The notes beneath the pieces are model-generated. The model saw only the letters and a list, made by a program, of their open reading frames with translations. It had not been told where the DNA came from and ran no database searches. This document shows positions 2,734-58,532 of a stretch of 64,000 nt of DNA, in pieces. Origin of the DNA: a virus (Duplodnaviria; Caudoviricetes); the IMG/VR virus record IMGVR_UViG_3300037400_008007, positions 1 to 64,000 of that record. The stretch is one strand, 5' to 3'. A program made the translations under genes and the position numbers. Each line of letters starts with the position of its first letter. Within the stretch, counting starts at the first letter, position 1.

Positions 2734-3117
2734 CTATGAAAACGAAAAACCAAAACTTGTCAGCCAAAAGCGATCGAGTCAGTGACTATCAGCATGACCC
2801 GTTTGTCGTGGATTGGCCATGTGTAACCTCAAAACAGAACAAATCATGATGAAGATAGTTGCAACAACACTCCTTTGCATAATAGTATTGGTGCAGTGGG
2901 TAATAGGAATCAAAGGTTGTGCCAAGGAACATTTAGGATGCTCCAGTATGGTAATATTCAGCCTGTGGTCGATATTCCTTATCTCGTTGTTATACTTCGC
3001 AGGGTGTTTCGATTTTTGAAAGCAAAGGCTGGGGTGAGTGCCACGGTAACGTGTCACACGGAATTAAATGCATAGGCACCCCAGCCTGTTTTTATAAGGA
3101 TAATAAATAATACAAAT

Positions 3118-3522
3118 ATGGAGAAAAGAGAAGAACAGCTTATTGAACGTATTCTTGGCAAGGAGTTCCTAAACGCTGCAAAGGAATATGGAAAACAAAT
3201 CAAGGTGGCGGTAGCCATACAGGGAGCATCGCCCAATGTACAAACGGCTATGGAGCGCATCGCTTCAGTGGCTTTTGCCAAAGGAGCAGAAAATTTCCGA
3301 AGTAGCCTTTGGCACCCACTGGCGAAGAAATATCCGAAGCTCAACACTCCAGTCTTGTGCAAGGGTGAAAGTAACGTGCTGTTTATCGCAGAGTTCGTCA
3401 AGACAGCTGACGGAGGCATTAAGTCCAAGGACATGAACCACTGCCCTACAGAGAGAGTTGAGTACTGGATGGAGATACCAAACTCGGAAATTCGAGCAAC
3501 GAAAGAGGTGGCCATGAATTGA
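3118..3522 (+). CDS. Hypothetical phage protein with DUF551-like C-terminus
   Basis: WHP...P...VL...YWMEIP pattern. Confidence 0.55.
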   Translation: MEKREEQLIERILGKEFLNAAKEYGKQIKVAVAIQGASPNVQTAMERIASVAFAKGAENFRSSLWHPLAKKYPKLNTPVLCKGESNVLFIAEFVKTADGGIKSKDMNHCPTERVEYWMEIPNSEIRATKEVAMN

Positions 3523-3534
3523 GCCACCCCTTTC

Positions 3535-3657
3535 AAAGTAGAAGGCCCTACTCTCACGAGCAAGGCCGTTCCTATGCAAATAAGATAAATACCATCAAAA
3601 CTAAGACAATGATGCCAGAATAGGCAGTTGTCGTTAGATGAAAATGTATCTATCGAT
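3535..3657 (-). ncRNA. Candidate trans-acting antisense sRNA complementary to the cassette leaders
   Basis: Leftward promoter upstream; 3574-3611 is complementary to the cassette leader consensus; a 10-bp GUGA-tetraloop hairpin (3544-3567) pairs fully only on the minus strand. Confidence 0.55.
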
Positions 3658-3661
3658 GTGG

Positions 3662-3693
3662 CAAAGGTAGGATTTTTTTGTCAAAAGCACAAA
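3662..3693 (-). promoter_or_regulatory. Leftward Bacteroidetes housekeeping promoter
   Basis: Minus-strand TTTG (3693-3690), 20-nt spacer, TACCTTTG (3669-3662). Confidence 0.7.
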
Positions 3694-3705
3694 TTTTGTG
3701 CGATA

Positions 3706-3725
3706 TTTGATAAAATTTTATCAAA
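3706..3725. promoter_or_regulatory. Perfect 20-bp palindrome TTTGATAAAATTTTATCAAA, putative operator
   Basis: Self-complementary, lies between divergent promoters; the half-site TTTGATAAA recurs in the cassette promoters. Confidence 0.65.
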
Positions 3726-3728
3726 AAT

Positions 3729-3759
3729 TTTGCATTATCTGTAGAAATGATTATATTTG
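3729..3759 (+). promoter_or_regulatory. Rightward promoter of the HTH-ParB operon
   Basis: TTTG 3729-3732, 19-nt spacer, TATATTTG 3752-3759. Confidence 0.7.
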
Positions 3760-3779
3760 CACTTGAATTTCTAAACATT

Positions 3780-4190
3780 ATGATAAGAGAGAAGATTTAC
3801 CAGCAGATGTTGAAGCGCGGAGTGACCCAGACGGAACTCTGCAATGACCTCTGTCTGCAGGTGTCAAATTTCAATGCTTTTATTCGCGGAAAGAGGGCTA
3901 TGCCATTCAAAGACCTTGTGGCCACGATGAAGTATTTGAAGTTATCTGTGGCACCTCAAGGAACAGAAAGCACAAGCACCCCTCCCGAAAATATGAATGA
4001 GATTTTCCGCAAGCGAATTAAGCAGAATAACTTGAAACTTGTGGAAGTCGAGGCTGCTTCGGGTATCTGTAGAACAAGCATTTCCAGTATAATCACTGGA
4101 AAACACGTCACGTCATCGAAGAACCTTGGCAGGCTCATGACTGCTCTTGGTCTCGATGTCGTGCCGTTCAAGGCAACAGTAACGAACTAA
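3780..4190 (+). CDS. Transcription regulator with two tandem XRE-type HTH domains
   Basis: GVTQTELCNDLCLQVSNFNAFIRG and LKLVEVEAASGICRTSISSIITG. Start moved from 3747 to 3780 because the -7 box lies inside the longer ORF. Confidence 0.8.
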   Translation: MIREKIYQQMLKRGVTQTELCNDLCLQVSNFNAFIRGKRAMPFKDLVATMKYLKLSVAPQGTESTSTPPENMNEIFRKRIKQNNLKLVEVEAASGICRTSISSIITGKHVTSSKNLGRLMTALGLDVVPFKATVTN

Positions 4191-4204
4191 ATACAATCTG
4201 AACA

Positions 4205-10217: not shown

Positions 10218-10281
10218 CAGTGTTCAGTAACGAAGATGCAAATAAGATAAAAACGACAAAATTAAGCAGTAACTTTACGCA

Positions 10282-11901
10282 ATGAAAAAGAAGAGTCGCA
10301 CGAAAAATGGAGCGGAAGATTGTCTCTATAGAGACTTTCTGATGCTCTACCAGTTCTGCACAGAGGAAGTCAAAATGGACTTACTGAAACGCTTGAAAGG
10401 CCAGCCGAGACCCGAGACCCTTTGCGGTAAGATAGTTCCGAAAGACCTAAACAGCATCAGCTATGGATCACTTGATGACTTACGGAGTGCTGGCGAAGAA
10501 AAAGACCCAGTGGGGGCTTGTGCCAAGATACTGCTCGGACTGGAGCCAGAAAAATTGCTGCGAGAAGATGTGAACGATGTCTTTGGCTTTGGCGGCTTCA
10601 TCACAAAGGAGCTGGAGCGTATAAACAGGCTCTTCAAGGACATAAAGGTGAACTACTCTAAGGAAGAAATAGCAGCAGGTATACGGCAGCTTGACTTTGG
10701 TAGTTTTGGTGTCCTTGATTGGTACGCAAAACGTATGGGAATCACCAACCAAAACGAAGTGCGAGACGTGGCTTGGGTGCGTATCTACCAGTGCATGAAG
10801 AACGATTGTATGAAGAACGAGTACGAGCGCAGGCTGAGTCAGCAATACAAATCGAAGATAGGCAAAAACAAAAGATAGGCAATGAGTAAGTGTAATTGTT
10901 TGAAGAACGTGGCCGCTCATGGCACAGTGGAGAAGAAAATCCATTCGATTGTAGACAGCATGGAAGCAGATGTTGCCTACTTCTTCTTGAACTGGGCGCA
11001 GGCCAACGAAGCTATTGACAACGTGGATAAGCCCTCTATTGTTTATGTACTCCCGCCGTCGGGAGAACTTGATGTTAGTTGGGCGCAGGTAAAGGACAGG
11101 CCAGAAGCGCAAATAGCGTTTATAGCTCCCACAGACTTCGACTTCGATGGAGAAGCCAATGATGACATCATAGAGCAGATGAAGCGTTTGTGCGTAAGGT
11201 TCATAAAAGCCTTCAACGAGAGCGGCTTGTTTGAGATTATCGAAGGCAAATTGTCATATAGGGTGCTATATGATTATCTTGACCACAATGTGACAGGTAT
11301 AGTTATTACTCCAAAAATCAAGGAGGAAGAGGGAATTATCATTTGTGGCGATGAAGAGGTGAGAGCCGAGGATGAGTAACCATAGTGGCCAATGGAAGCG
11401 ATAAGAGAAATAGTAATGCGGCACTTGCAGAACGTGCAGAAAGGCATCGTTGTAAACATGCAGAAGATGCACCGCACAACGTCTGGCCGTTCTGTCGCAT
11501 CGTTGCTTATTGAGGATGAAGGCACAGACGGCATGGCTCATTTGCTCCTTACTGGTGATAAGCAGTGGGAAGTCATGGAGAGAGGGCGAGGGCCAGGCAA
11601 TGTGCCACATAACTTCGCAGACATTATCAAGGAGTGGATATTGCGCAAGGGTATCAGTTATCAGCAGTTCGCTCCGAAGAAAGGGCCAACAGAACGAGGA
11701 TTGACAAATCTCTCATGGATGATAGCGCAAAGCATCATGAAGAAAGGCACAAAGCTCCACCGCGACAATGGATATAACGACATCTTTGACACCCTGCTAA
11801 AAGAAGAGACAGAGAAGCTGGCTATCGAAGCGCAGGGTATAATAGCAACAGAAGTAGATACAATAAACGACAAAGACGATGCAGAGAAGAGCAATTCGTA
11901 G
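10282..11901 (+). other. Three ORFs (10282-10878, 10882-11379, 11392-11901), probable neck or tail-completion proteins
   Basis: Position between TerL and tail genes; 165-198 aa; no diagnostic motif recognised. Confidence 0.5.
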
Positions 11902-23214: not shown

Positions 23215-23294
23215 GTCAAAAATTTGCATATATGATAAATTTTGATTACCTTTGAGGTAGCAAATAAGATAAATACACTTCAAAACTTACGATT
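23215..23294 (+). promoter_or_regulatory. Cassette promoter/leader C2
   Basis: TTTG 23223, 20-nt spacer, TACCTTTG 23247-23254, GTAGCAAATAAGATAAA, TTCAAAACTT. Confidence 0.8.
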
Positions 23295-24215
23295 ATGAAC
23301 ACAATCAATCTTTCAGACCTGCAGCAGCAGACACAGGAAATCAAAGAACACATAGCACGTTACGAGGCTACTCACGAACCATCGCAGTTCCGTGTGTTTC
23401 CTCGCGCCATGGAGGCTATTGCCGAGTATGGTGCCGAGAACATCTTTTTGGTGAGCGAGGTTTACCATGGTATGTATCACGATGACTATGCATATTTTGA
23501 GTACTATAACAATGTGACGGGCGAGACATTCAAGGACCAATGGACTACTGCTTTCTGCTGCCCAGCTTACCAGTTCTACAAGTGCGTAACGATTGAGGAC
23601 GCATGGGAGTGTGGTTTTGTCAATGCCGAAAAGTGGCTCAAGTCAAAGAAAGAGGAACTGCTTGCGTATCTGTCCGCAGCTGCTATTCCCCACATTCCTG
23701 TAGCCGAACTTATCAAAGCGAAAGCCCTTGTGTCTGTCCGTAAAGGGCGCAAGTGGCAGGGTACTGGCTACATCATCAAGAAGCGAGACATGAAGTTTGG
23801 GTATAAGTCTGTGACCTACGCAATCATATTCGACCCCATGACAATGACCATTAACGAGGTCAATGCCGACTACGTTCAGATAGAGGACATGGAGTGTCTG
23901 GAGAAGATGTGGAAGCAGGAGTGTAAGGACATGATTACGGCTTTGCAACCGTCAGACGTAGTTGTTTCTAACGGACGCATCGAGACAGGCTGCAAGGTAG
24001 ATTTTATTAGCTGGCTTACCAAGCGCAACGAGGGTGTGATATTGGACTACTCGGAAGCGTCATGGCCTGCACAGGAAGCAAGAGATAAGAAAGCATCAGA
24101 GTTTAAGGAGAAGAAGATGGCCGAGCTTGTTGAGTGGGTCAAGACGAACACCGACAGGAAAGGCGATGATATTCAAGCCCTCGCAGAACGTATCTTCGCA
24201 CGTCGTTACGCATAA
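23295..24215 (+). CDS. Hypothetical protein (306 aa)
   Basis: Long ORF directly behind promoter C2. Confidence 0.7.
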   Translation: MNTINLSDLQQQTQEIKEHIARYEATHEPSQFRVFPRAMEAIAEYGAENIFLVSEVYHGMYHDDYAYFEYYNNVTGETFKDQWTTAFCCPAYQFYKCVTIEDAWECGFVNAEKWLKSKKEELLAYLSAAAIPHIPVAELIKAKALVSVRKGRKWQGTGYIIKKRDMKFGYKSVTYAIIFDPMTMTINEVNADYVQIEDMECLEKMWKQECKDMITALQPSDVVVSNGRIETGCKVDFISWLTKRNEGVILDYSEASWPAQEARDKKASEFKEKKMAELVEWVKTNTDRKGDDIQALAERIFARRYA

Positions 24216-24250: not shown

Positions 24251-24362
24251 AAAAAAACTTTGCAGGAAAGCAAAACTTTCTCGCTAAAAATTCGCATATT
24301 TGATAAAATCTTTGTACCTTTGGTATAGCAAATAAGAAAAGTAACCTTCAAAACTCAAGACA
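24251..24362 (+). promoter_or_regulatory. Cassette promoter/leader C3
   Basis: CATATTTGATAAA, TACCTTTG 24315-24322, TAGCAAATAAGAAAAG, TTCAAAACT. Confidence 0.8.
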
Positions 24363-25465: not shown

Positions 25466-25524
25466 CGTAGAGCGATCAAGAGGCAAGAGAGAAATAAATC
25501 TTGTACTTTTGGTAAGAAATAAGG

Positions 25525-25605
25525 CAAAAAGTTTGTGTATTTGATAAAATATGCTTACCTTTGCCAATGCAAATAAGATAAAGTAATAATCAAAACTTAG
25601 ACATC
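25525..25605 (+). promoter_or_regulatory. Cassette promoter/leader C4
   Basis: TTTG 25532, 20-nt spacer, TACCTTTG 25556-25563, ATGCAAATAAGATAAA, TCAAAACTT. Confidence 0.8.
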
Positions 25606-31641: not shown

Positions 31642-31748
31642 CGGCCATGAAGTGCAGCCACACTTTTCTTATTTGCTACTCAGAGAAGTTTTGATATATC
31701 ACAGGCTGCACAGGTCGTTTGGGAGTGTCATTTGGCACTCCCTTTTTT
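31642..31748 (+). ncRNA. Candidate 3'-UTR antisense RNA, ending in an intrinsic terminator
   Basis: Stem GTGCAGCC/GGCTGCAC encloses CTTTTCTTATTTGCTACT and GAAGTTTTGA, both complementary to cassette leader motifs. Confidence 0.5.
31721..31748 (+). terminator. Intrinsic terminator
   Basis: GGGAGTGTC-ATTT-GGCACTCCC followed by T6. Confidence 0.85.
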
Positions 31749-51400: not shown

Positions 51401-52147
51401 GATAGCGACACTGGTGAGCTTCTTAACACAACACCGCCTGCAAATCTCAACTACACAGGACAGGACTTCTACAATCTCTGTTACATGCGTGGTGAGGGCT
51501 TCCATGATGTCAGCTATGAGCAGAACAAGATTATCGCTATCCTGTCTCGCTGCTGGTGTGGCGATCGTGACGACCAAGCCGTGTACGGCATGGGTGTAAC
51601 GGCTGGTTACACCACTGGCACTCTTGACAGCCGTGGTAAGCGTGACACAGCATCCGGCAACAATATGAATAAGATTTGGGGTCTTGAGGCATGGGTAGCT
51701 TGTAACTGGGAGTTCATGGACTACGTTGGTGTAAACATTAGCAATTTCTCTGATTGGAGGAAGAACCACCGTCCGCAGTCTGGAACGGTTGATGCGAAGT
51801 GGCACATCTTCGACCCACGTACTAAGACGGAGCGTGTTGTGCAGGGTCTCTCCAGTTCGGGAACTTGTATTGCTCGCCTGAAGCATGGCCGTTATTGCGA
51901 CATCATTGCAAGCAGTTGTAACTCTGACTCCAGCAGGTGGAACACCTGTTATGCTGCTGCTCACTATTACACTGCTACTGGTGGGCGCGTGGTTGGTCGT
52001 GCGCTCCACAGTGCGTATGCGAATGGCGGTTGCGTTTATGCGGGCGCGTACGTCGCTTCTTCGTCCTCGAATACGTACTACGGTGCGCGTCTCGCCTTCA
52101 GCGGAAAATTCGCAAACGAGGCCGAAATCGACCCAGAGCTGCTGTAA
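45425..52147 (+). CDS. 2240-aa putative receptor-binding/adhesin protein; DGR target 1
   Basis: LamG-like (KWMHLAFV), CotH-kinase-like (DQRAKN...YDGDT) and LRR-like segments; C-terminal variable repeat. Confidence 0.8.
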   Translation: MARKNNVSYNDIPDLQTDWEKDPTNGNKPFSGESVQKFIKRKLGEAETKLGGIELNGSGTAETPNANGNVELTIPEVDSQLNQTTSTKAAQAGAVVQKLNAVDSKMPVGARLGNVSGDGSEVTLEFLNEQNDVVFDVEIPAAQDVGEVIYPVVNVSRQTAARLKVGSDIGINWLYDCRSNQSEGSVAYNATVVISATHAGDNGTTELNLGSAATRVDVRPGTSGTFTIDGSLISSRGTVTVMVTATADIEGERKVATKRITVEMEMLSLTSSFNPATGLATNSGVTGSINVPYNYSVPDGTTLRAWLNGSLYTSAGISGSSTGRITIDVADMVAGRNNLQLLAIDGAGLKSDVISIDFRRASGTANYLGLVLVCSSDDVDAADLENTMPLPYAYGGAGVPLQASQFEEIEIPLAAWNNESVTSEVEVALDGVTVQTITADRSRQSLKQRFDTSGNHVLTITLGTLVLTTNVAVTASGTVDEEVTGQYKVALTSVGKANSQADREDWGGITTLTGLNYSANGWIDNTLLLTNGAKAIIDLKPFADYTDDNEGLLQTGMTLEIELKVSQVMERGAAIMHCLFLNDSGVPDPNDNTIYPRGIKITTEKAGLLFGGPEEIHTTEKVQDANGNYLRFSAVSVSEGDDISAAGYYVKVSDNVWKLTTDTTAQSGTSYYEGVTCDEGDAQDLYVIRPYGAEMNIAEDKWMHLAFVIEPVSGGNGLGLLYINGVLSRVNRYSNSIAYALRQLTAQPLTFDSDKADVAIRTVRYYRFALDRDQVLANWIATLHTGAEMQVAHDNNDVDGTDSNNQPTISKAKLLAASKGRGVLTFVKSMNCKTGSGNNGMEELFENSVGKKDDFRADMVEWVPPTGVGTGFVARNVRIRIQGTSSVNYPYKNIRVYLDTPFDANNYPVSLEITGGALYNVYENKKLKDANGNTFDGYCLRGTGNSRPQKVLCAKTDFVDSSLTMNTGGAHLFNDTMENLGLVTPPMEIDRRVRQAIDGIPCDVYAAESEAGPFKYFGQFVLNNEKSKSGMIFGMEKVYQNDEEVDFRRNTGTAQNPVYPINTKPIALESLENRYALTLFQSAGTQNSQALANQLAATFDDAFEFNHPEDAKWATIGTGSFADWGGAQTAIKRLFGFIYDSVAASGVDLSDPEYGDANGWSDADKAKWVSNYFKEHVEEYFNVDYLCTYYLFTDYWASVDQRAKNILWRTWDGYIWYPTYYDGDTAMSIRNDAFMVYLYSVTRDTYDTERSKYAFEGHDSWLWCLVLANLGEELAECAQNLRTRLTTQAMLHEFNDVIMGNWSERQYNYSQKLKYIDTMDVKYYPYTLTGNREAHRTQFLTDRAQLLDAQYTAGNYSGDRISLRVNRLASDAANTLTIKSGDLYYYGYFLNTGGGNWLQRPIRAEQGQSCVLTFTEAINGGSIQTFVCGASRMAELDLTDMCGNLLTTEMDLSACVTLTKLVIRATRSVYGGIITLGQTAKLQHIDLTGQVGINNGTANTLSLVLHSRLTTALLSGTGLVSLQLPEGAPISTLALPKTLRTLTLRNLPNLLTSGLTMEDNDWQSITGINFATCPGLSWQTLLNTCTNARNIRIEGISGRVRSSMLTPFMAGWNPSSPNDYSGLTYHGLDADGTYNNWPQFGGSTVTLVDMIETVTVNGTTYTFAQMKQFFLDKCGLTIIEAPYSVYKEKDSETDSENITNLDNLTGYDYNNEYEPSGHIVKIRNKSVPVKGLYDDSNEEMSLTALSEENYKKLADGTTFDATDALGEGFDCFMYIPNFFYKGVNDFLNDEKYTLLSARTKTAPSQSWTQKRDGVLSELLYADEVGLAYSRVTVGSALNDSTMLTRLTSAAVYRIDVEGMKQVRYPGLNSNSYGTAFVDANGIVLEKHYFEAVSVEGSPNGFVNGDYLFRSIPANAKWLYFTFLREQNDADHLIFAIDSDELEAIEPGWVKHESELIALYGASIDGDGMIRSLSGKVTKRGTGIQTTSADWRYDSDTGELLNTTPPANLNYTGQDFYNLCYMRGEGFHDVSYEQNKIIAILSRCWCGDRDDQAVYGMGVTAGYTTGTLDSRGKRDTASGNNMNKIWGLEAWVACNWEFMDYVGVNISNFSDWRKNHRPQSGTVDAKWHIFDPRTKTERVVQGLSSSGTCIARLKHGRYCDIIASSCNSDSSRWNTCYAAAHYYTATGGRVVGRALHSAYANGGCVYAGAYVASSSSNTYYGARLAFSGKFANEAEIDPELL
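51984..52100 (+). repeat. DGR variable repeat VR1
   Basis: 117 bp; 17 differences from TR, all at TR adenines. Confidence 0.97.
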
Positions 52148-52168
52148 GCAGCGCAGAGCGTGGCACGT

Positions 52169-52195
52169 TGGGCAGGGGTAACAAGCCCCTGCCCA
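52169..52195. promoter_or_regulatory. GC-rich hairpin downstream of VR1 (typical DGR target-recognition element)
   Basis: TGGGCAGGGG-TAACAAG-CCCCTGCCCA, perfect 10-bp stem. Confidence 0.65.
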
Positions 52196-52326
52196 CGAGC
52201 CGAAAAGCCGCTGAGCCGATGACGAGAAACGAGGAACGACCACCCGAAAGTGAGAGCGTGAGACGAGAACGTAAACGGAGCGAAGCGACGAAACGAAGAA
52301 CGAAAAAAAGGTAGAGGACTTCTCAT

Positions 52327-52443
52327 GGCGCGTGGTTGGTCGTGCGAACAACAATGCGAATGCGAATGGCGGTTGCGTTTATGCGAACGCGAACAACGCT
52401 TCTTCGAACTCGAATACGAACAACGGTGCGCGTCTCGCAAACA
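52327..52443 (+). repeat. DGR template repeat TR
   Basis: 117 bp, 30 adenines, 13 AAC/AAT codons; 3' end GCAAACA versus GCCTTCA in both VRs. Confidence 0.97.
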
Positions 52444-52626
52444 AGTTAATCGGCTCTATGGTGTATGCTTGCGTGACAGGCAATGACAATGGCCGACAAG
52501 TCCGAGCCTCGGCAACAGCAATCTTTCCAGCCTGCAAAGAATTGGAAAAGATTGGAAAGCGGAAAAATCTAAGGGTGCAACCTATGATAGGTGAGTAAAC
52601 AAGGAATTGGCTGAAAGTCTTAACGG

Positions 52627-53943
52627 TTGCGGAATGAAGGAATATTCACTATGAGTAAAAGATATGGTCATATCATGCCACAAATCATCGAGAGACGGAA
52701 CATGGATGATGCCTTCGATGAGGTGGTAGGAGGCTTAGAGGGAAAGGAGCGTCGGGAGCACTACGAGGCGCAGAGAGAGAGTATCATATCACGGCTGACC
52801 GCCAAGATAGGCTCCGGCACCTTTCGCATCACACGCTATGAACAGTTCTGGGTTCAAGACGGGCCTAAGCGTAGGTTGATACAGTCGCCCAGCGTGACAG
52901 ACAGAATTGGTTGTAATGCCGTGATGAGGGTTGTGGAGAAATATATCTACCCGACCATTATCAAGACATCTGCAGCAAGCATCAAAGGACGTGGCATGCA
53001 CAGGCTCTACCGTAAGATGAGGACAGACGTGCGCCATGACCGAGAGGGAACGAGATACTTCTATATGTGCGACATAAGAAAGTTCTACGAGAGTGTGAAC
53101 CAAGACATGACGTTTGCGCTGGTTAAGGAATATATCAAAGACCCCTTGGTGCTGCCGATACTGGAGAGCTTTATTAGGCTCATGCCGAAAGGACTTTCCA
53201 TAGGCCTGCGTTCATCGCAGTGCTTCGGTAATATGCTGCTGTCAAGAATGGGTCACAGGTTAAAGGAGAAAGAGGGTGTGCGCTACCTTTACATCTACTG
53301 TGACGACATTCGAGTGTATGGTGCAACAAAGAAGTGGCTATGGCATATCCGAGACATCATTCACGAAGAGGTTGAAAGCCTTGGACTGGAGATAAAGCCC
53401 AGCGAGGCTGTTAAGCCAACGACAGAGGGGAATGACTTTCTTGGATATATCGACTATGGCGATCATTCGAGATTAAGAAAGAGAACAAAACAAAAAGCCG
53501 CACGGAAACTTGCCCGAATAAAGAGCCGCAAGCGCAGACAGAAAATAGTCGGTTCTTTCAAGGGCATGGCGAAATGGGGAGATTGTAAACATTTATACAG
53601 AACGCTAACAGGTAAAGACATGGAAGAGTTCAAAGATTTTGGACTACAGTATGTAGCCGACGATGGTAAGAAACGGTTTGCTGGTGATGTAATCAAGTTG
53701 CATCAGCTTACCAATATGCACATTATCATTACGGACTACGAAGAGAACGTAGACACGGCTAACGGCAAACGTACTCTGGTGTCGTTCAAGTACGACAACG
53801 GAACGCCTGCCAAGTATTTCACTTCTGACAAGCAGCAGCTCTATTTCCTGCAGCAGCTATCTTCGATGAAAAAGATACCGTTTGGTACGACTATCAAGAG
53901 TGAGAGCTACGGGAACGGAAAGGTACGTTATATATTCACTTAA
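52627..53943 (+). CDS. DGR reverse transcriptase with a C-terminal extension of about 107 aa
   Basis: KRRLI, IKGRG, CDIRKFYES, GLSIGLRSSQCFGN, YCDD, DFLGY; adjacent to TR. Confidence 0.95.
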   Translation: MRNEGIFTMSKRYGHIMPQIIERRNMDDAFDEVVGGLEGKERREHYEAQRESIISRLTAKIGSGTFRITRYEQFWVQDGPKRRLIQSPSVTDRIGCNAVMRVVEKYIYPTIIKTSAASIKGRGMHRLYRKMRTDVRHDREGTRYFYMCDIRKFYESVNQDMTFALVKEYIKDPLVLPILESFIRLMPKGLSIGLRSSQCFGNMLLSRMGHRLKEKEGVRYLYIYCDDIRVYGATKKWLWHIRDIIHEEVESLGLEIKPSEAVKPTTEGNDFLGYIDYGDHSRLRKRTKQKAARKLARIKSRKRRQKIVGSFKGMAKWGDCKHLYRTLTGKDMEEFKDFGLQYVADDGKKRFAGDVIKLHQLTNMHIIITDYEENVDTANGKRTLVSFKYDNGTPAKYFTSDKQQLYFLQQLSSMKKIPFGTTIKSESYGNGKVRYIFT

Positions 53944-53954
53944 ATATTACGACT

Positions 53955-54455
53955 ATGAAATTAGAGAAAATCTATGGTGCAACGGCACGACAAGACGGTC
54001 TATATAAGATAGGCCGTAACAAGTATGAACTATTCTTTGGTTATGGCCAGGATGGAGAGAACGGCTACAACTGGCGCAGGAAGTATCGCTACCTGCCAAC
54101 GGTTGAAGAGCTAAAGACCGACATCGAGGACACAGTGAACGCTCTGACAGACGAGAAGATTTTGACAGGCTTTTCATGGAATGCAAAGAACGTCTATCTT
54201 TCATCTGAAAACCAGTTCAACTTCAAAGCCGCCTACGACCTTGCAGTACAGACGCAGGGAGCGACCCTGCCTGTCAAGTTCAAGTTGGGTGAGGACTACG
54301 AAGGCAAGCCAGTGTACCATACTTTTGAGAGTATGGAAGAGTTCACGGACTTCTACACAAAGGCCATCGCTTTCGTCAATCAGACGCTCAATAGTGGCTG
54401 GCTTGAGAAAGATGCAGTAAATTATGAAGAACTAATAAAGGAGGAACAGGTATGA
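53955..54455 (+). CDS. DUF4376-like protein
   Basis: LSSENQFNFKAAYDL...FYTKAIAFVNQTL. Confidence 0.6.
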   Translation: MKLEKIYGATARQDGLYKIGRNKYELFFGYGQDGENGYNWRRKYRYLPTVEELKTDIEDTVNALTDEKILTGFSWNAKNVYLSSENQFNFKAAYDLAVQTQGATLPVKFKLGEDYEGKPVYHTFESMEEFTDFYTKAIAFVNQTLNSGWLEKDAVNYEELIKEEQV

Positions 54456-54907
54456 TAGCAACATTGATTTCATTGGTAATTATAGCCGTATATCTCGGCT
54501 GGTATCTCAAATCCTATGGAGTACCCGAAAGCATATCGCAGACGGTGTTCAAGCTCCCCCATGAGATAATCTTTACATTGGTGATGTGGGCCGTTGCAGG
54601 CCTTAACATTGCACAGATGTTAGAACGCTGTAGTGACGAAACACAGTTCCTTGCGTTTCTTACTATGGCCGGAATATTGTTCGTTGGTGCGGCTCCACTT
54701 GGAAAGGACTGTGACGAGAGGGTGCATATTGGCGGTGCGTTGTTTTTCGGAATCTGCAGCCAGATAATGATTGCCCTTAATGCGCCCCTGTTGCTTTTGG
54801 CATGGCTACCGTGCGTGTGGTGGCTCATCAAGAGCGCAGGAAGTCACTTTAAGTTCTGGATGGAGGTTACTTGCATCGTAGATTTGCTAATATTCTGCCT
54901 GCTATGA
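54452..54907 (+). CDS. Multi-pass membrane protein
   Basis: Four to five hydrophobic segments. Confidence 0.65.
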   Translation: MIATLISLVIIAVYLGWYLKSYGVPESISQTVFKLPHEIIFTLVMWAVAGLNIAQMLERCSDETQFLAFLTMAGILFVGAAPLGKDCDERVHIGGALFFGICSQIMIALNAPLLLLAWLPCVWWLIKSAGSHFKFWMEVTCIVDLLIFCLL

Positions 54908-55104
54908 AGCTGAAAGGCAAGGAACACCCTTGCTGGGGATGCGAAGAGACTTTGAACTGCATCAACGGACTGTATTGCACCCGTCTGAAGGGCTATTTAG
55001 AGTACGCACAGACGAAACCTTGTAAGGAATCGTAGTAACTCATATTTTCAACGTGAATAACCAGAGCCGTGCTGCCTGTGACGGGTCATGCGGCTCATCT
55101 TTTT

Positions 55105-55205
55105 AAGAATTTGATAAAAAATCCCTCAAAAAAATTTGTGTATTTGATAAATTTTGCTTACCTTTGCCATAGCAAATAAGATAAACGACTTCAAAACAAA
55201 AAATT
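55105..55205 (+). promoter_or_regulatory. Cassette promoter/leader C9, with two TTTGATAAA half-sites
   Basis: TTTGATAAA at 55110 and 55143; TACCTTTG 55159-55166; TAGCAAATAAGATAAA. Confidence 0.85.
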
Positions 55206-56030
55206 ATGGTAAAATTCACGTCTGAATGTGATTACGCATCACTTACACTTGCGACAATCATGCTCGTTTTGAGCATTGCAGTAGTAATCTATGCAATTTG
55301 TGTCAAAGCTCCCTTTGGAAGCATCTTTATGAACGGCATTTTTGTTGCTTTCTCCTATGTGTTGTTCCGCGTACTTTGGAAAGAGGGTACAGTACATGTA
55401 ACCAAGGGCAAGCAGCAGGAAAAGGTATGAGAAACATATGCAAAAGTGTAGTGGGGGGGTAAAACCCCCGCCTACTACATTCTGTAGAGAGAATAAAGCG
55501 CAAAAGACCGTTTTCGTTGACGTAATGCTTGACGGACGTTTCGTGTTTACACACAGGCACCGTTATTGTCCTTTGTTTCGTCTCGATCTGAAACAGATAT
55601 ACACGGAAGTCATGGAGAAACGGCCATCACTAAAAGGAAAAAATATCGAAATGTGGATTGACTGAAAACTCAAATTATAAAAATTATGGAAGAAACGAAG
55701 AAATTAAAACTGGATGGTAAGCATTTCTCAAAGGTGCTGGAAGATTACGTCGAGAGCTTAAAGAGACAACTCAACGTATTGGCGCAGAGCAAGAAAAGAA
55801 TGAGAACCAATCCATTGCTAACGCTCTGGAAGAGCAAGCGATTAACTAAGGAGTACATTCTGTTAGAAATGCCGAGGTTGCAAAACAAGACATCTAAGCT
55901 GCCAAGTTCCGAGAGGGCTGTACTTCATGACATCATTTCTACCTGCATCAAGAAAACTGCTTTAGAAGAAGCGAAAGCTGTTAAGGAGCAGTTAGACAAA
56001 GAGGCAGAAAGCGATGCTGAGAAAGAGTAA
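55206..56030 (+). other. Three small ORFs (55206-55430 membrane, 55438-55665, 55686-56030)
   Basis: ORF track, behind C9. Confidence 0.5.
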
Positions 56031-56057
56031 AGTTATTCACCAATAAAAAGAGAGACT

Positions 56058-56627
56058 ATGAAATTAGTATTGTTCGACATTGAAACGACAGGAATTGACA
56101 GCGTTAAGCACGGTATTCATCAAATTAGTGGCAAGATTATCGTGAATGGTCAAGTCAAAGAGACTTTTGACTTTAAGGTGCGACCCAAGGACGATGCTGT
56201 GTATGATGCAGCCGCCTTAGAGGTTGGCAAGGTTACGAAAGAGCAACTGCTGGCTTATCCCACGATGAGAGAAGTCCATGCAAAATTCGTGACCATGCTC
56301 GACAAGTATGTGAACAAGTATGACAAGACTGACAAGTTCTTCCTTGTGGGCTACAACAACGCTCATTTCGATAACCCGTTCTTACGTCAGTGGTTCGTGG
56401 ATAACGGCAACAAGTATTTCGGTTCATACTTCTGGAGTAACAGTTTTGATTGTATGGTACTGGCTACTGCCACCCTCGCGGAGAAGAGAGCAACCATGCC
56501 GGACTTCAAGCAGGCCACCGTTGCTGCAGCACTTGGTGTAGTTATTGAGTCCGAGAAGTTGCACGACGCAAGCTACGACATAGAGCTTTGCCATGCTATC
56601 TACGATAAGGTTTGCGGGAAATACTAA
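56058..56627 (+). CDS. DEDDh 3'-5' exonuclease (DnaQ-like)
   Basis: LFDIETTG, VGYNNAHFD, LHDASYD. Confidence 0.88.
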   Translation: MKLVLFDIETTGIDSVKHGIHQISGKIIVNGQVKETFDFKVRPKDDAVYDAAALEVGKVTKEQLLAYPTMREVHAKFVTMLDKYVNKYDKTDKFFLVGYNNAHFDNPFLRQWFVDNGNKYFGSYFWSNSFDCMVLATATLAEKRATMPDFKQATVAAALGVVIESEKLHDASYDIELCHAIYDKVCGKY

Positions 56628-56633
56628 CAAGTC

Positions 56634-57218
56634 ATGCAGATACTTGAACCGAGTGCCAAACGTATAGACAGCAGTTCACTCGCTATCAACAAGCGTAGTG
56701 ACTTTACAAGACGCATCCCAGCTTACCCTCCAAAGGTGCAGGCAAGGGTGGAGAAGATTGTTAAGCAGCTTATCCATGCGTATGACGTAGAGGGCGACAC
56801 AGAGAAGATGAGAAATATCTTCATGCGAAAAGCCTGTCTGCTGCCAAATCCCTCCTATTGGGAGTTGTTGCGTACTGTATGGGTTGCAAGTGGAAAGACA
56901 GAGAACAGTAGAGAGTTCCGTCCTCTCTTTAAGTCAAGCAGGCCAAGCAAAAGCTGGTTTATGACGGTTGAAGATGCTGCGGCCCTCGATGCTATGGAAT
57001 TTCCCATCACCGTCTATCGAGCCTATGACCCCTACTATGATACTCCAGAAGGAATTGAAGAGGGTGGCGACCCAGGCTTGTCATGGACGCTTGACAAGGA
57101 ATGGTGTGAAGGGTATGCAGCTTCTAAACAGCGTGTCATCAAGAGCCGTCAAGTAGAACGTAAAGACATCTTTGCCTATGTCAGCAGACGAGGGGAAGAA
57201 GAAATTATCATCCTATGA
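56634..57218 (+). CDS. Hypothetical protein with an ADP-ribosyltransferase-like R-S-E pattern
   Basis: TVYRA, GLSWT, GEEEII in the order expected for the ART fold. Confidence 0.5.
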   Translation: MQILEPSAKRIDSSSLAINKRSDFTRRIPAYPPKVQARVEKIVKQLIHAYDVEGDTEKMRNIFMRKACLLPNPSYWELLRTVWVASGKTENSREFRPLFKSSRPSKSWFMTVEDAAALDAMEFPITVYRAYDPYYDTPEGIEEGGDPGLSWTLDKEWCEGYAASKQRVIKSRQVERKDIFAYVSRRGEEEIIIL

Positions 57219-57673
57219 ATAGAGAAGAGGTCTTTAGAAAGATTGCGAAGCAAACAGGCAAAAAGCCGATGCAGTGCGATTGTGAGCAGTGCAAGCACAT
57301 GTGTCACACTCCGTGCTTGGGAACACCTCAAGACATTCTTGCACTGATAAACGCAGGCTATTCCGATAAGCTCTGTTATACAGAGTGGATTGCAGGCATG
57401 ATTATTGGCTTTACGTCTGATAGTATCGCAATGGTTCAAATCAAGAAAGAGGGTGAATGGTGCGTGTTCTTCCACGATGGCAAGTGTGAACTGCATGAAA
57501 AAGGGCTGAAACCCACCGAGGGCCGACTGGCTTACCATGAAGTAAGCGAAAGGGAGTTTAAGCCGGAATACAATCTGACATACCAAGTAGCCAAGGAATG
57601 GGGCGATGGCAATTTAGATGTGGTCAAAGAGATTGTTGGAAAGTTAAGCGCGTTTTGGAACAGAAATCAATAA
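57215..57673 (+). CDS. Cys-cluster (YkgJ-like) metal-binding protein
   Basis: CDCEQCKHMCHTPC and CVFFHDGKCELH..KP. Confidence 0.65.
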   Translation: MNREEVFRKIAKQTGKKPMQCDCEQCKHMCHTPCLGTPQDILALINAGYSDKLCYTEWIAGMIIGFTSDSIAMVQIKKEGEWCVFFHDGKCELHEKGLKPTEGRLAYHEVSEREFKPEYNLTYQVAKEWGDGNLDVVKEIVGKLSAFWNRNQ

Positions 57674-57689
57674 CCATTAACAAAATGTT

Positions 57690-58532
57690 ATGAAAAAAGT
57701 TATTTTGAATGTACCCGACAATCGGGAAAGAGAGTTCTCCGAAAAGCTGGCAGAACTGATGAAAGAGTACGGAGTCACCGAGAGGTACGAGCCAAGAGAG
57801 GGTGATTTTGTGGCTTTCATGGATGACACAACAGATGAGCCGTTTATTGGTATCTTCTGTAGTTGGTACAACGATGAAGCGGACAAGATTGTTTGTTACG
57901 CTCATATTGACGATGAAGGCAGTCTGGAGCAAGAAGAAGAGTATTGGAATGCAGACACAATCCGAAAGGCAACAAAAGAAGAGAAGGATAACCTTTTGCG
58001 AGAGTTGGCGAAGTCTGGCAAGCGTTGGAATGCAGAGGAAAAGACGTTTGATGAATGTCAGACCTATGAGGCTATCCGTACTTTTGAGGATGCGATGACG
58101 GTTACAGGCATGACTTTGCCGTTAAGCGATGAGACATTATCGTTGCTGGGTGCTGATATTGTGGCTTATATGAAGCTTCGTGTTATTGTGGCAGCTATCA
58201 ATGGTCTGTCAGAGACAACCCTTGCAGAGTTCCCAAAGTTTACTACTGACGAGTATCGCTACTATCCTTGGTTTGCTCTATATACCAAGGAAGAGATTGA
58301 GGCTATGGATGAAGAGGACAAATGGCGCGTGGTTGGTCGTGCGCTCCTCAGTGCGAGTGCGGATGGCGGTTGCGTTTTTGCGTACGCGAACTACGCTTCT
58401 TCGTGCTCGTATACGCTCCACGGTGCGCGTCTCGCCTTCATCGACCGCGAAAGAGCGAAATACGCTGGCAGACAGTTCGCAGAACTGTATGCCGACTTCC
58501 TGTTTCTCCCACTTGAATTGATTGCCGAATGA
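57690..58532 (+). CDS. 280-aa protein; DGR target 2
   Basis: Contains VR2 about 30 codons before the stop; YYPWF...GARLAF...AKYAGRQF. Confidence 0.85.
   Translation: MKKVILNVPDNREREFSEKLAELMKEYGVTERYEPREGDFVAFMDDTTDEPFIGIFCSWYNDEADKIVCYAHIDDEGSLEQEEEYWNADTIRKATKEEKDNLLRELAKSGKRWNAEEKTFDECQTYEAIRTFEDAMTVTGMTLPLSDETLSLLGADIVAYMKLRVIVAAINGLSETTLAEFPKFTTDEYRYYPWFALYTKEEIEAMDEEDKWRVVGRALLSASADGGCVFAYANYASSCSYTLHGARLAFIDRERAKYAGRQFAELYADFLFLPLELIAE
58324..58440 (+). repeat. DGR variable repeat VR2
   Basis: 117 bp; 19 differences from TR, all at TR adenines. Confidence 0.97.

Follow-up and report, generated by a model that had tools for sequence, protein, structure and literature searches.

The locus and the phage around it

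A minus-strand promoter, a predicted small RNA (sRNA), and a terminator hairpin lie in a row in the 64,000-nt stretch of phage DNA analyzed here (the window), divergent from a tandem-HTH regulator gene (Table 1). The window comprises bases 1–64000 of a 74.6-kb provirus record of IMG/VR (G000), and nearly all of its genes are carried on the + strand. The phage genes include those for the small and large terminases, a tape measure protein, and a head protease, together with a DGR. Protein search found an integrase homologue at 73392–74615 of the record, beyond the window, and also in the relative G001. The homologue in the record is 74% identical to an integrase adjoining host genes in G007:C55, and genome searches with PF00589 and PF00239 gave no match to it. 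A close relative is integrated beside GH3 and TonB-receptor genes in a Bacteroidaceae MAG from sheep rumen, and G001 is a complete 97.9-kb relative genome with terminal repeats. On account of the integrase homologue, the integrated relative, and G001, we regard the phage, judging from its genes, as a temperate one infecting rumen or gut Bacteroidales. The record ends inside the lysogeny module, before the CI-like region, and the comparisons of switch sites given later are those of relatives. No match was obtained when 50,697 phage records were searched by blastn with positions 3100–4200 as the query.

Two other parts of the window should be noted. Genes for a radical-SAM protein, a DAHP synthase-chorismate mutase fusion, and an acyl-carrier protein are found at 338–2571, inside the phage region, by Pfam. 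The DGR extends over 51984–58443, with an Rfam RT-3 RNA at 52448–52630 (57 bits) and a reverse transcriptase ORF at 52627–53943. Its 120-nt repeat family has members at 52327 (template-like), 51984 (the end of a 2240-aa gene), and 58324 (a second, remote target).

Table 1. Coordinates of the features at the sRNA locus and of its predicted partners (positions above 64000 are those of the full record)
Feature	Position	Strand	Remark
−33 element (TTTG), sRNA promoter	3690–3693	−	19–20 nt upstream of the −7 box in all homologues
−7 element (TACCTTTG), sRNA promoter	3662–3669	−	Same −7 box as the cassette promoters
Predicted sRNA transcript, ~121 nt	3536–3656	−	5′ end from promoter spacing, 3′ end from terminator tail
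5′ domain, long imperfect hairpin	3584–3654	−	Closing helix 3646–3654 with 3584–3592; helices 1–2 86–94% paired
Apical hairpin of 5′ domain	3613–3626	−	Stem retained despite differing homologue sequences (helix 5)
Unpaired linker UUAUUUGCAUA, predicted seed/toehold	3573–3583	−	Complementary to the first 9 nt of box A
Terminator hairpin	3544–3567	−	10 bp, GUGA loop, two G-U pairs; extendable by GGAA/UUCU to 3540–3572
U-rich tail	3534–3543	−	After terminator hairpin; longer U-run in relatives, e.g. L010, L007
Promoter-less leader-like copy (box A, box B, ATG)	3574–3611	+	Template of the anti-leader part of the sRNA
Palindromic operator, TTGATAA half-sites	3703–3728		Between sRNA promoter and tandem-HTH promoter; conserved in relatives
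Tandem-HTH (XRE-type) regulator gene	3780–4190	+	Divergent from sRNA gene; promoter ~3729–3759
Promoter-less box A copy	10236–10284	+	In an operon, between large terminase gene and next gene; 16-nt exact complement in sRNA
Cassette leader, predicted target	23260–23297	+	Leaders of the same kind start elsewhere in the record
Leaders of the same kind, window, predicted targets	24328, 25569, 28779, 31829, 33049, 34994, 55172		Start positions
Leaders of the same kind, beyond window, predicted targets	64066, 65833, 69060, 70291		Start positions
Second anti-leader element	31652–31748	+	3′-UTR stem of a cassette operon; anti-box A, then anti-box B, in the loop

An earlier note, made from the letters of the window, had described a full minus-strand promoter at 3693–3662 that points into a gap with no credible ORF. 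The string TTTG-N20-TACCTTTG is found at that place and agrees with the Bacteroidota consensus. Of the seven matches that the window has to TTTG-N18-22-TACCTTTG, where chance would give 0.06, it is the only one on the minus strand, and over 50 nt it has ~78% identity with the cassette promoter at 25517–25566. With TTTG at −33 and TAnnTTTG at −7, the sRNA has its own promoter of the σABfr type as defined at the level of sequence (PMC7366714). An invertible promoter was considered and rejected; no inverted repeats flank the promoter besides the operator palindrome, and inversion would leave the promoter not upstream of the leader copy.

At the other end of the unit, the hairpin forms all 10 of its pairs solely as minus-strand RNA and is followed by UUCUACUUUG, as the earlier note had read it. 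This is the only terminator-like call at the locus, and it gives the minus-strand RNA a Rho-independent terminator. A second hairpin, at 3501–3534, spans the stop codon of a 134-aa gene and forms 12 of 12 pairs, one of them G-U, on the minus strand only. This hairpin is present in the window and in L008 and absent from L007 and L010, and it is probably outside the conserved sRNA. The gap is free of a credible minus-strand ORF, as had been claimed: a 169-aa TTG frame at 3054–3563 has no Pfam match and is antisense to a conserved + strand gene, and was rejected as coding. A 7-codon AUG frame within the sRNA was also rejected; it is not conserved, and its AUG is missing in L012 and L016.

Homologues, fold, and strand of the predicted RNA

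We searched for homologues by pattern scans of viral, genome, and metagenome collections and then with a covariance model. Nine distinct homologues were obtained, from related phage contigs and from prophages in rumen or gut Bacteroidales MAGs; the scan of metagenomes gave no variants past about ten. The covariance model (R1) finds one strong copy per genome, with scores of 80–144 bits. All the homologues keep TACCTTTGC, which is invariant in the eight that were aligned over it, the upstream TTTG at its spacing, the fold, and the hairpin and U-run on the same strand. No family of Rfam matches the sRNA; apart from GibS, which stays below its threshold, the hits are noise. A weak homologue of 36 bits (L098; G009:C80 2256–2376) is located on a 2.4-kb contig and has an apical hairpin, a U-rich seed variant ending in UAUUUGC, and a terminator with a GGGA loop.

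The window sequence folds with an MFE of −45.8 kcal/mol (z −6.2) as the sRNA, versus −30.4 kcal/mol (z −3.6) on the opposite strand. The two arms of the 5′ domain differ in character: the sequence resembles a leader in the 5′ arm and is anti-leader in the 3′ arm. In the predicted fold, the 5′ arm (3646–3654 onward) pairs with the 3′ part of the anti-leader, 3584–3612. Between this domain and the terminator, the 11-nt linker is unpaired in both the MFE fold and the consensus structure, and its TTATCTTATTTGCA is invariant among the homologues. The long hairpin masks most of the anti-leader, while ~11 nt corresponding to the 5′ part of anti-box A are exposed (box A is the 13-nt tag described below). 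This predicted layout is that of a toehold, in which a short exposed seed is joined to a masked extension. The RNA has, in silico, a conserved single-stranded seed complementary to the 5′ or initiation regions of mRNAs encoded elsewhere.

The earlier note had named covariation in related phages as a check of the proposal. In the model-based alignment of the nine homologues, 90.5% of the cells are paired and 14 of the 32 pairs are changed on both sides, compared with 4.4 ± 1.7 in shuffles (0 of 500 reached 14) and 0–4 in slid controls; the nine homologues are few and related, so the shuffle statistic is generous and overstates the significance. The slid controls and the asymmetry between the strands are independent of that statistic. 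Six of the pairs altered on both sides belong to helices 1 and 2 of the 5′ domain. In the terminator hairpin, 7 of 13 pairs have compensatory changes, with 94% of the cells paired, and the loop is GNRA in all nine homologues (GUGA, GGGA, GCGA, or GAGA). Reading the sRNA strand of the homologues gives 38 G-U pairs, versus 6 for the opposite strand, and each of the nine homologues has its lower MFE when read as the sRNA. The G-U pairs, the GNRA loops, and the MFE are three independent features, and they settle the strand of the RNA as minus.

The gene upstream differs in several relatives (L010, L012, L016, and L017), and the sRNA always stays at the same module boundary. In L010, the different upstream gene directly abuts the sRNA terminator. 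The statement that the RNA is transcribed opposite the HTH regulator holds for the window, where the HTH gene is divergent, but not generally; G004 carries the sRNA without the neighboring HTH gene, indicating that the coupling is not obligatory. The proposal of a separate minus-strand sRNA, ~120 nt long and bounded by a promoter and a terminator of its own, stands as a predicted transcript, backed by conservation in nine homologues, covariation, and strand-specific features. We consider it highly probable that the minus-strand sRNA gene is real.

On the + strand, positions 3574–3611 read as a mosaic of cassette leaders, just as quoted in the earlier note. The exact runs of 17 nt shared with the leader at 23260 and of 16 nt shared with that at 25567 are reproduced. 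The match claimed for a third cassette is correct in that TCAAAACT to the ATG agrees with the leader at 24328, but one extra base interrupts the agreement. The copy has no + strand promoter and leads here to an ORF of 4 codons. In relatives, this mini-ORF has 5–9 codons and encodes unrelated peptides, and its ATG is lost in L010; therefore, we count the locus as non-coding. A leader copy with neither a + strand promoter nor a gene is what a decayed cassette remnant beside a chance promoter-like string would leave, in which case there would be no functional RNA. This explanation, which the earlier note had named as its null case, is very improbable. Nine phages have diverged yet keep the promoter, the fold, the GNRA loop, the U-tail, and the anti-leader, and the RNA shows compensatory changes and G-U pairs specific to its strand, while the flanking genes vary by contrast.

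Tagged leaders and predicted pairing

Box A (GCAAATAAGATAA, with up to one mismatch) occurs 11 times in the window, ten of them on the + strand, whereas 0.10 copies are expected. It forms a 13-nt tag starting 5 nt after the −7 box of 12–14 phage promoters per genome; the spacing is exactly 5 nt in the 12 cassettes of the full record. In the 24 leaders compared, the −33 and −7 boxes are no better conserved than box A. In four host MAGs of 2.6–3.6 Mb, the pattern of promoter plus box A is confined to the prophage contig, with 11 and 12 copies in two of them and one copy each in the other two, all on one strand. The tag is apparently also used inside an operon, because the copy at 10236–10284 has no promoter. 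This copy sits ~40 nt before an internal start codon, and similar promoter-less copies of box A are seen in G001 at 96495 and 15532.

In the six genomes compared, the exact complementary runs of at least 12 nt between the sRNA and the phage are all on the mRNA-sense strand. Two stray bases in the leader at 25567 aside, the match to the cassette leaders starts at box A, and in none does it run on into the promoter. Matching confined in this way is more readily explained by selection on the RNA than by mere copying of DNA. The net cofold gain after unfolding both partners is −15 to −26 kcal/mol for 12 of 12 leaders, compared with −6.6 ± 2.0 kcal/mol (best −13.3) for shuffled sRNAs. The predicted duplex takes in the mRNA from its first nucleotide up to the AUG region and leaves the apical and terminator hairpins intact. 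Its seed part is A/U-rich, which, with the masking of most of the anti-leader in the sRNA fold, counts against the pairing model. The proposed complementarity from the first transcribed bases to the AUG is thus borne out by favorable predicted net energies and by the lineage-specific matching described next. In contrast, a duplex scan with the whole RNA over G001 does not separate the leaders from the background (mean −29 ± 5), with only the site in the switch leader standing out (−49); the background is high because GC-rich windows pair with the terminator. Since this naive whole-genome scan is not discriminating, the cofold energies are supportive but not decisive.

Box A never varies, and hence the core of the seed offers no compensatory test. 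Outside box A, the leaders of G004 have a different pre-AUG box, and the sRNA of G004 has a corresponding change. In the divergent lineages, pairing is best within a genome; the value for G004 is −34.2, versus −21.7 to −28.5 in the cross-comparisons. The true assignment of sRNAs to leaders ranks 4th among 720 permutations, and only swaps among three near-identical genomes are better. This lineage-specific match could, however, come from concerted evolution of the repeated leader copies rather than from selection for pairing. Taking these observations together, we interpret 3536–3656 on the minus strand as the gene for a trans-acting base-pairing sRNA of a temperate Bacteroidales phage, with a probability of roughly 0.6. 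Action by pairing with the tagged leaders is judged to be a rather good prospect on the modeled duplexes, and one RNA could control a dozen tagged operons together.

The sRNA, which would be fully complementary to any + strand read-through out of the upstream operon, could instead act mainly in cis, as an insulator or processing signal separating that operon from the HTH/ParB-terminase block, with its likeness to the leaders being a mere trace of a cassette origin. No + strand terminator follows the gene ending at 3522, the hairpin read on the + strand has two mismatches and no U-tail, and the position at the module boundary is constant despite the different upstream genes, as would be expected of such a signal. 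However, the leader-like part is the most conserved stretch, the unpaired part coincides exactly with anti-box A, the homology mostly ends at the leader start, with 2 extra bases in the leader at 25567 only, and the sRNA tracks the leader variants of its own genome. We therefore regard a purely local role as unlikely, and the trans-acting reading is followed below.

The seed includes bases outside box A, next to the terminator, and these also have partners in relatives. In G001 and G002, an exact match of 15–16 nt is found in the 5′ UTR of an early operon, which is set face to face with the promoter of a CI-like repressor gene beside the integrase gene. A looser match is present at the same site in G005, where it is kept by G-U pairs as read from the sequences. 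The net cofold gain at these early-operon sites is −18 to −27 kcal/mol. In G004 and G005, the other complementary sites, of 14–20 nt, mark the 3′ end of a Bro-N-like gene. That of G004 matches over 20 nt at the stop codon and carries the seed variant specific to this genome, and G005 has three tandem complementary copies after the homologous gene. The Bro-N-like gene was not found in G000 or G001. Since the seed matches both the 5′ UTR facing the CI-like gene and the 3′ end of the Bro-N-like gene in relatives, the sRNA probably belongs to the control of lysis-lysogeny or of early-gene shut-off.

The second anti-leader element (Table 1) is independent of the first; it consists of an 8-bp stem with a 44-nt loop and is followed by a strong terminator. 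The order of the two box complements in its loop differs from that of a simple inverted leader, and near 40.5 kb G001 has the same arrangement. With 3536–3656 and 31652–31748, this phage family thus has two anti-leader RNA elements. The presence of this second RNA, together with the resemblance of the 5′ arm of the sRNA to a leader (GAUAGAUAC and CUAACGACAA versus the 3′ part of box A and the pre-AUG region), might suggest a decoy or sponge, in which the 5′ arm titrates the 31652–31748 RNA or a leader-binding protein and thereby relieves the control of the cassettes. The 5′ arm is, however, only loosely leader-like, has no box A, and is base-paired within the sRNA, and what is invariant and exposed is the complement of box A instead of box A itself. 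A decoy is accordingly quite improbable.

Regulatory context and known RNAs

The half-site of the operator, TTGATAA (within TATTTGATAA), should be noted, as it is also found in the spacer between the −33 and −7 boxes of every cassette promoter and in the early promoter at the CI-like switch of G001. The spacer of the sRNA promoter has only a degenerate copy. This distribution suggests one DNA-binding regulator for the whole tagged regulon. Because the half-site in the sRNA spacer is degenerate, such a regulator could repress the tagged promoters yet act differently on the sRNA promoter.

The lysogeny module of G001 (L022, 86109–89242) encodes the integrase, a 137-aa ORF, and a 161-aa CI-like HTH protein on the minus strand. 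The predicted promoter of the CI-like gene (88579–88548) faces the cassette-type early promoter (88491–88522), and the starts predicted from promoter spacing, ~88528 and ~88542, both lie between the −7 boxes, giving an overlap of ~15 nt between the 5′ ends of the transcripts. This face-to-face pair of promoters is also present in G002 and G005. The repeat TGTCGGACAAC recurs at 87.35–87.6 kb of G001, and its copies could be arm-type sites of the integrase.

In the mechanism we propose, host RNA polymerase with σABfr would start ~6 nt past TACCTTTG and stop at the GNRA-capped intrinsic terminator. The leader-like arm of the long 5′ hairpin would mask most of the anti-leader, leaving the 11-nt anti-box A linker free before the terminator. 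The linker would then dock on box A, the first 13 nt of 12–14 phage operon mRNAs, and strand invasion would open the 5′ hairpin so that the duplex grows through box B to the start codon. The outcome would be a block of translation, duplex-dependent decay, or both, in all the tagged operons at once. Such an outcome is likely, since ribosomes of Bacteroidota need an unstructured A-rich leader.

As a host precedent, GibS and FopS of B. thetaiotaomicron (RF04182 and RF04319) act at the beginning of the first gene and repress several operons there (PMC7366714, PMC11697453). The phage sRNA might nevertheless activate or protect the mRNAs after pairing, as a co-activator of the early regulon and not a silencer; it could do so by shielding the 5′ ends from 5′-dependent RNases or by remodeling the leaders. 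The pairing begins at the very 5′ end of the mRNAs, and the sRNA promoter is a member of the cassette promoter family, so that co-expression is possible, both of which suit activation. Against it, most targets would have both the A-rich stretch before the AUG and the AUG itself inside the predicted extended duplex, and the characterized Bacteroides sRNAs that bind translation-initiation regions repress (PMC7366714, PMC11697453). Activation is therefore doubtful, and for repression, taken overall on the modeled pairing, we put the odds at about even; the silencing master switch of the earlier note is a conjecture here. The full proposal, that the sRNA is a regulon-wide RNA repressor that acts through the 13-nt 5′ tag and the early leader of relatives alongside a DNA repressor, with cross-immunity as a possible consequence, is a tentative one with somewhat less than an even chance.

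GibS and FopS, which act without Hfq (PMC7366714, PMC11697453), are the closest mechanistic relatives of the phage sRNA, which resembles them in its σABfr promoter, its conserved single-stranded seed, and its Rho-independent terminator. It differs from them in being phage-encoded and single-copy, in having its seed between the long hairpin and the terminator instead of at the 5′ end, and in having targets whose mRNAs all begin with one invariant tag, which is found only in the phage. The score of the phage sRNA against the GibS model is 25.4 bits (E 0.17), compared with a threshold of 115, and the FopS model gave no match to it at E up to 10.

The CI RNA of P4 is a phage immunity antisense RNA of the same type as c4 and sar. 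The latter two, from P1/P7 and P22, respectively, pair with the lytic or antirepressor transcripts of their own phages and aid in the control of lysogeny (PMC12197685). The phage sRNA is similarly complementary, in silico, to lytic-phase transcripts of its own phage, and the sites in relatives, at a Bro-N-like (antirepressor-type) gene and at an early leader at the CI-like switch, add to the likeness. The c4 and CI RNAs also act on more than one complementary site. However, c4, sar, and P4 CI each have one target transcript, and they are cis-encoded or processed from it, whereas the phage sRNA has its own promoter and matches 12–14 separate operons by their common leader tag. Most of these targets are 19–67 kb away from the sRNA gene, and in G001 the distance to the CI-like switch, taken around the genome circle over the terminal repeat, is ~18 kb. 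The C4 family of Rfam gave no match to the sRNA.

RegB of T4 is a protein endoribonuclease recognizing GGAG, by which one phage factor inactivates many early mRNAs at a shared motif in the initiation region. The analogy is functional only, as here an RNA would do the recognizing, and it would read a 13-nt 5′-terminal tag. The prophage BTP1 produces an sRNA for superinfection exclusion, which pairs with the mRNA of a single gene (tailspike) of an incoming related phage (PMC12197685). Box A is invariant among the relatives found here, so cross-silencing is conceivable by analogy, although the target would be a regulon tag and not the tailspike gene.

A review of phage sRNAs lists none from Bacteroidota (PMC12197685). 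Since the Rfam thresholds are not reached, c4, sar, and P4 CI each act on a single transcript, and that review has no Bacteroidota case, we class the sRNA as a new family and a new form of phage antisense control. The locus is a compact and testable system, with one sRNA, one 13-nt tag, a dozen tagged operons, and a protein operator in the same promoters. Bacteroidota is the dominant phylum of the gut and rumen, and to our knowledge almost nothing is known about RNA-based regulation in its phages. If the proposal is true, the phage coordinates or shuts off its early program through an address label shared by its mRNAs. The sRNA and its leaders would then form a natural orthogonal pair for gene control in Bacteroides and Prevotella and would give a handle on the control of lysogeny in rumen prophages. 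The tag being invariant, a resident prophage could also silence incoming relatives, which would amount to RNA-based cross-immunity in Bacteroidota.

The terminator should finally be considered in relation to host RNAs. A CM search of 151 Bacteroidaceae genomes gave only weak matches of 30–35 bits, which have the terminator core in common with the phage sRNA but belong to FopS/GibS-like host sRNAs and were rejected as homologues. A likeness to GibS and FopS lies in this core: the 13-nt TGCTCG-N-GAGAGT of the phage terminator (3549–3561) recurs in FopS/GibS-like loci of Bacteroidaceae. The loci with the 13-nt core, a G-U pair, and a GNRA loop (L102–L113) come from Bacteroidaceae genomes G028, G088, G112, and others, and have weak matches to FopS, GibS, and BTnc231. 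The core may serve Bacteroidaceae sRNAs as a favored terminator or as a module recognized by a protein. Three copies of it are present in G088.
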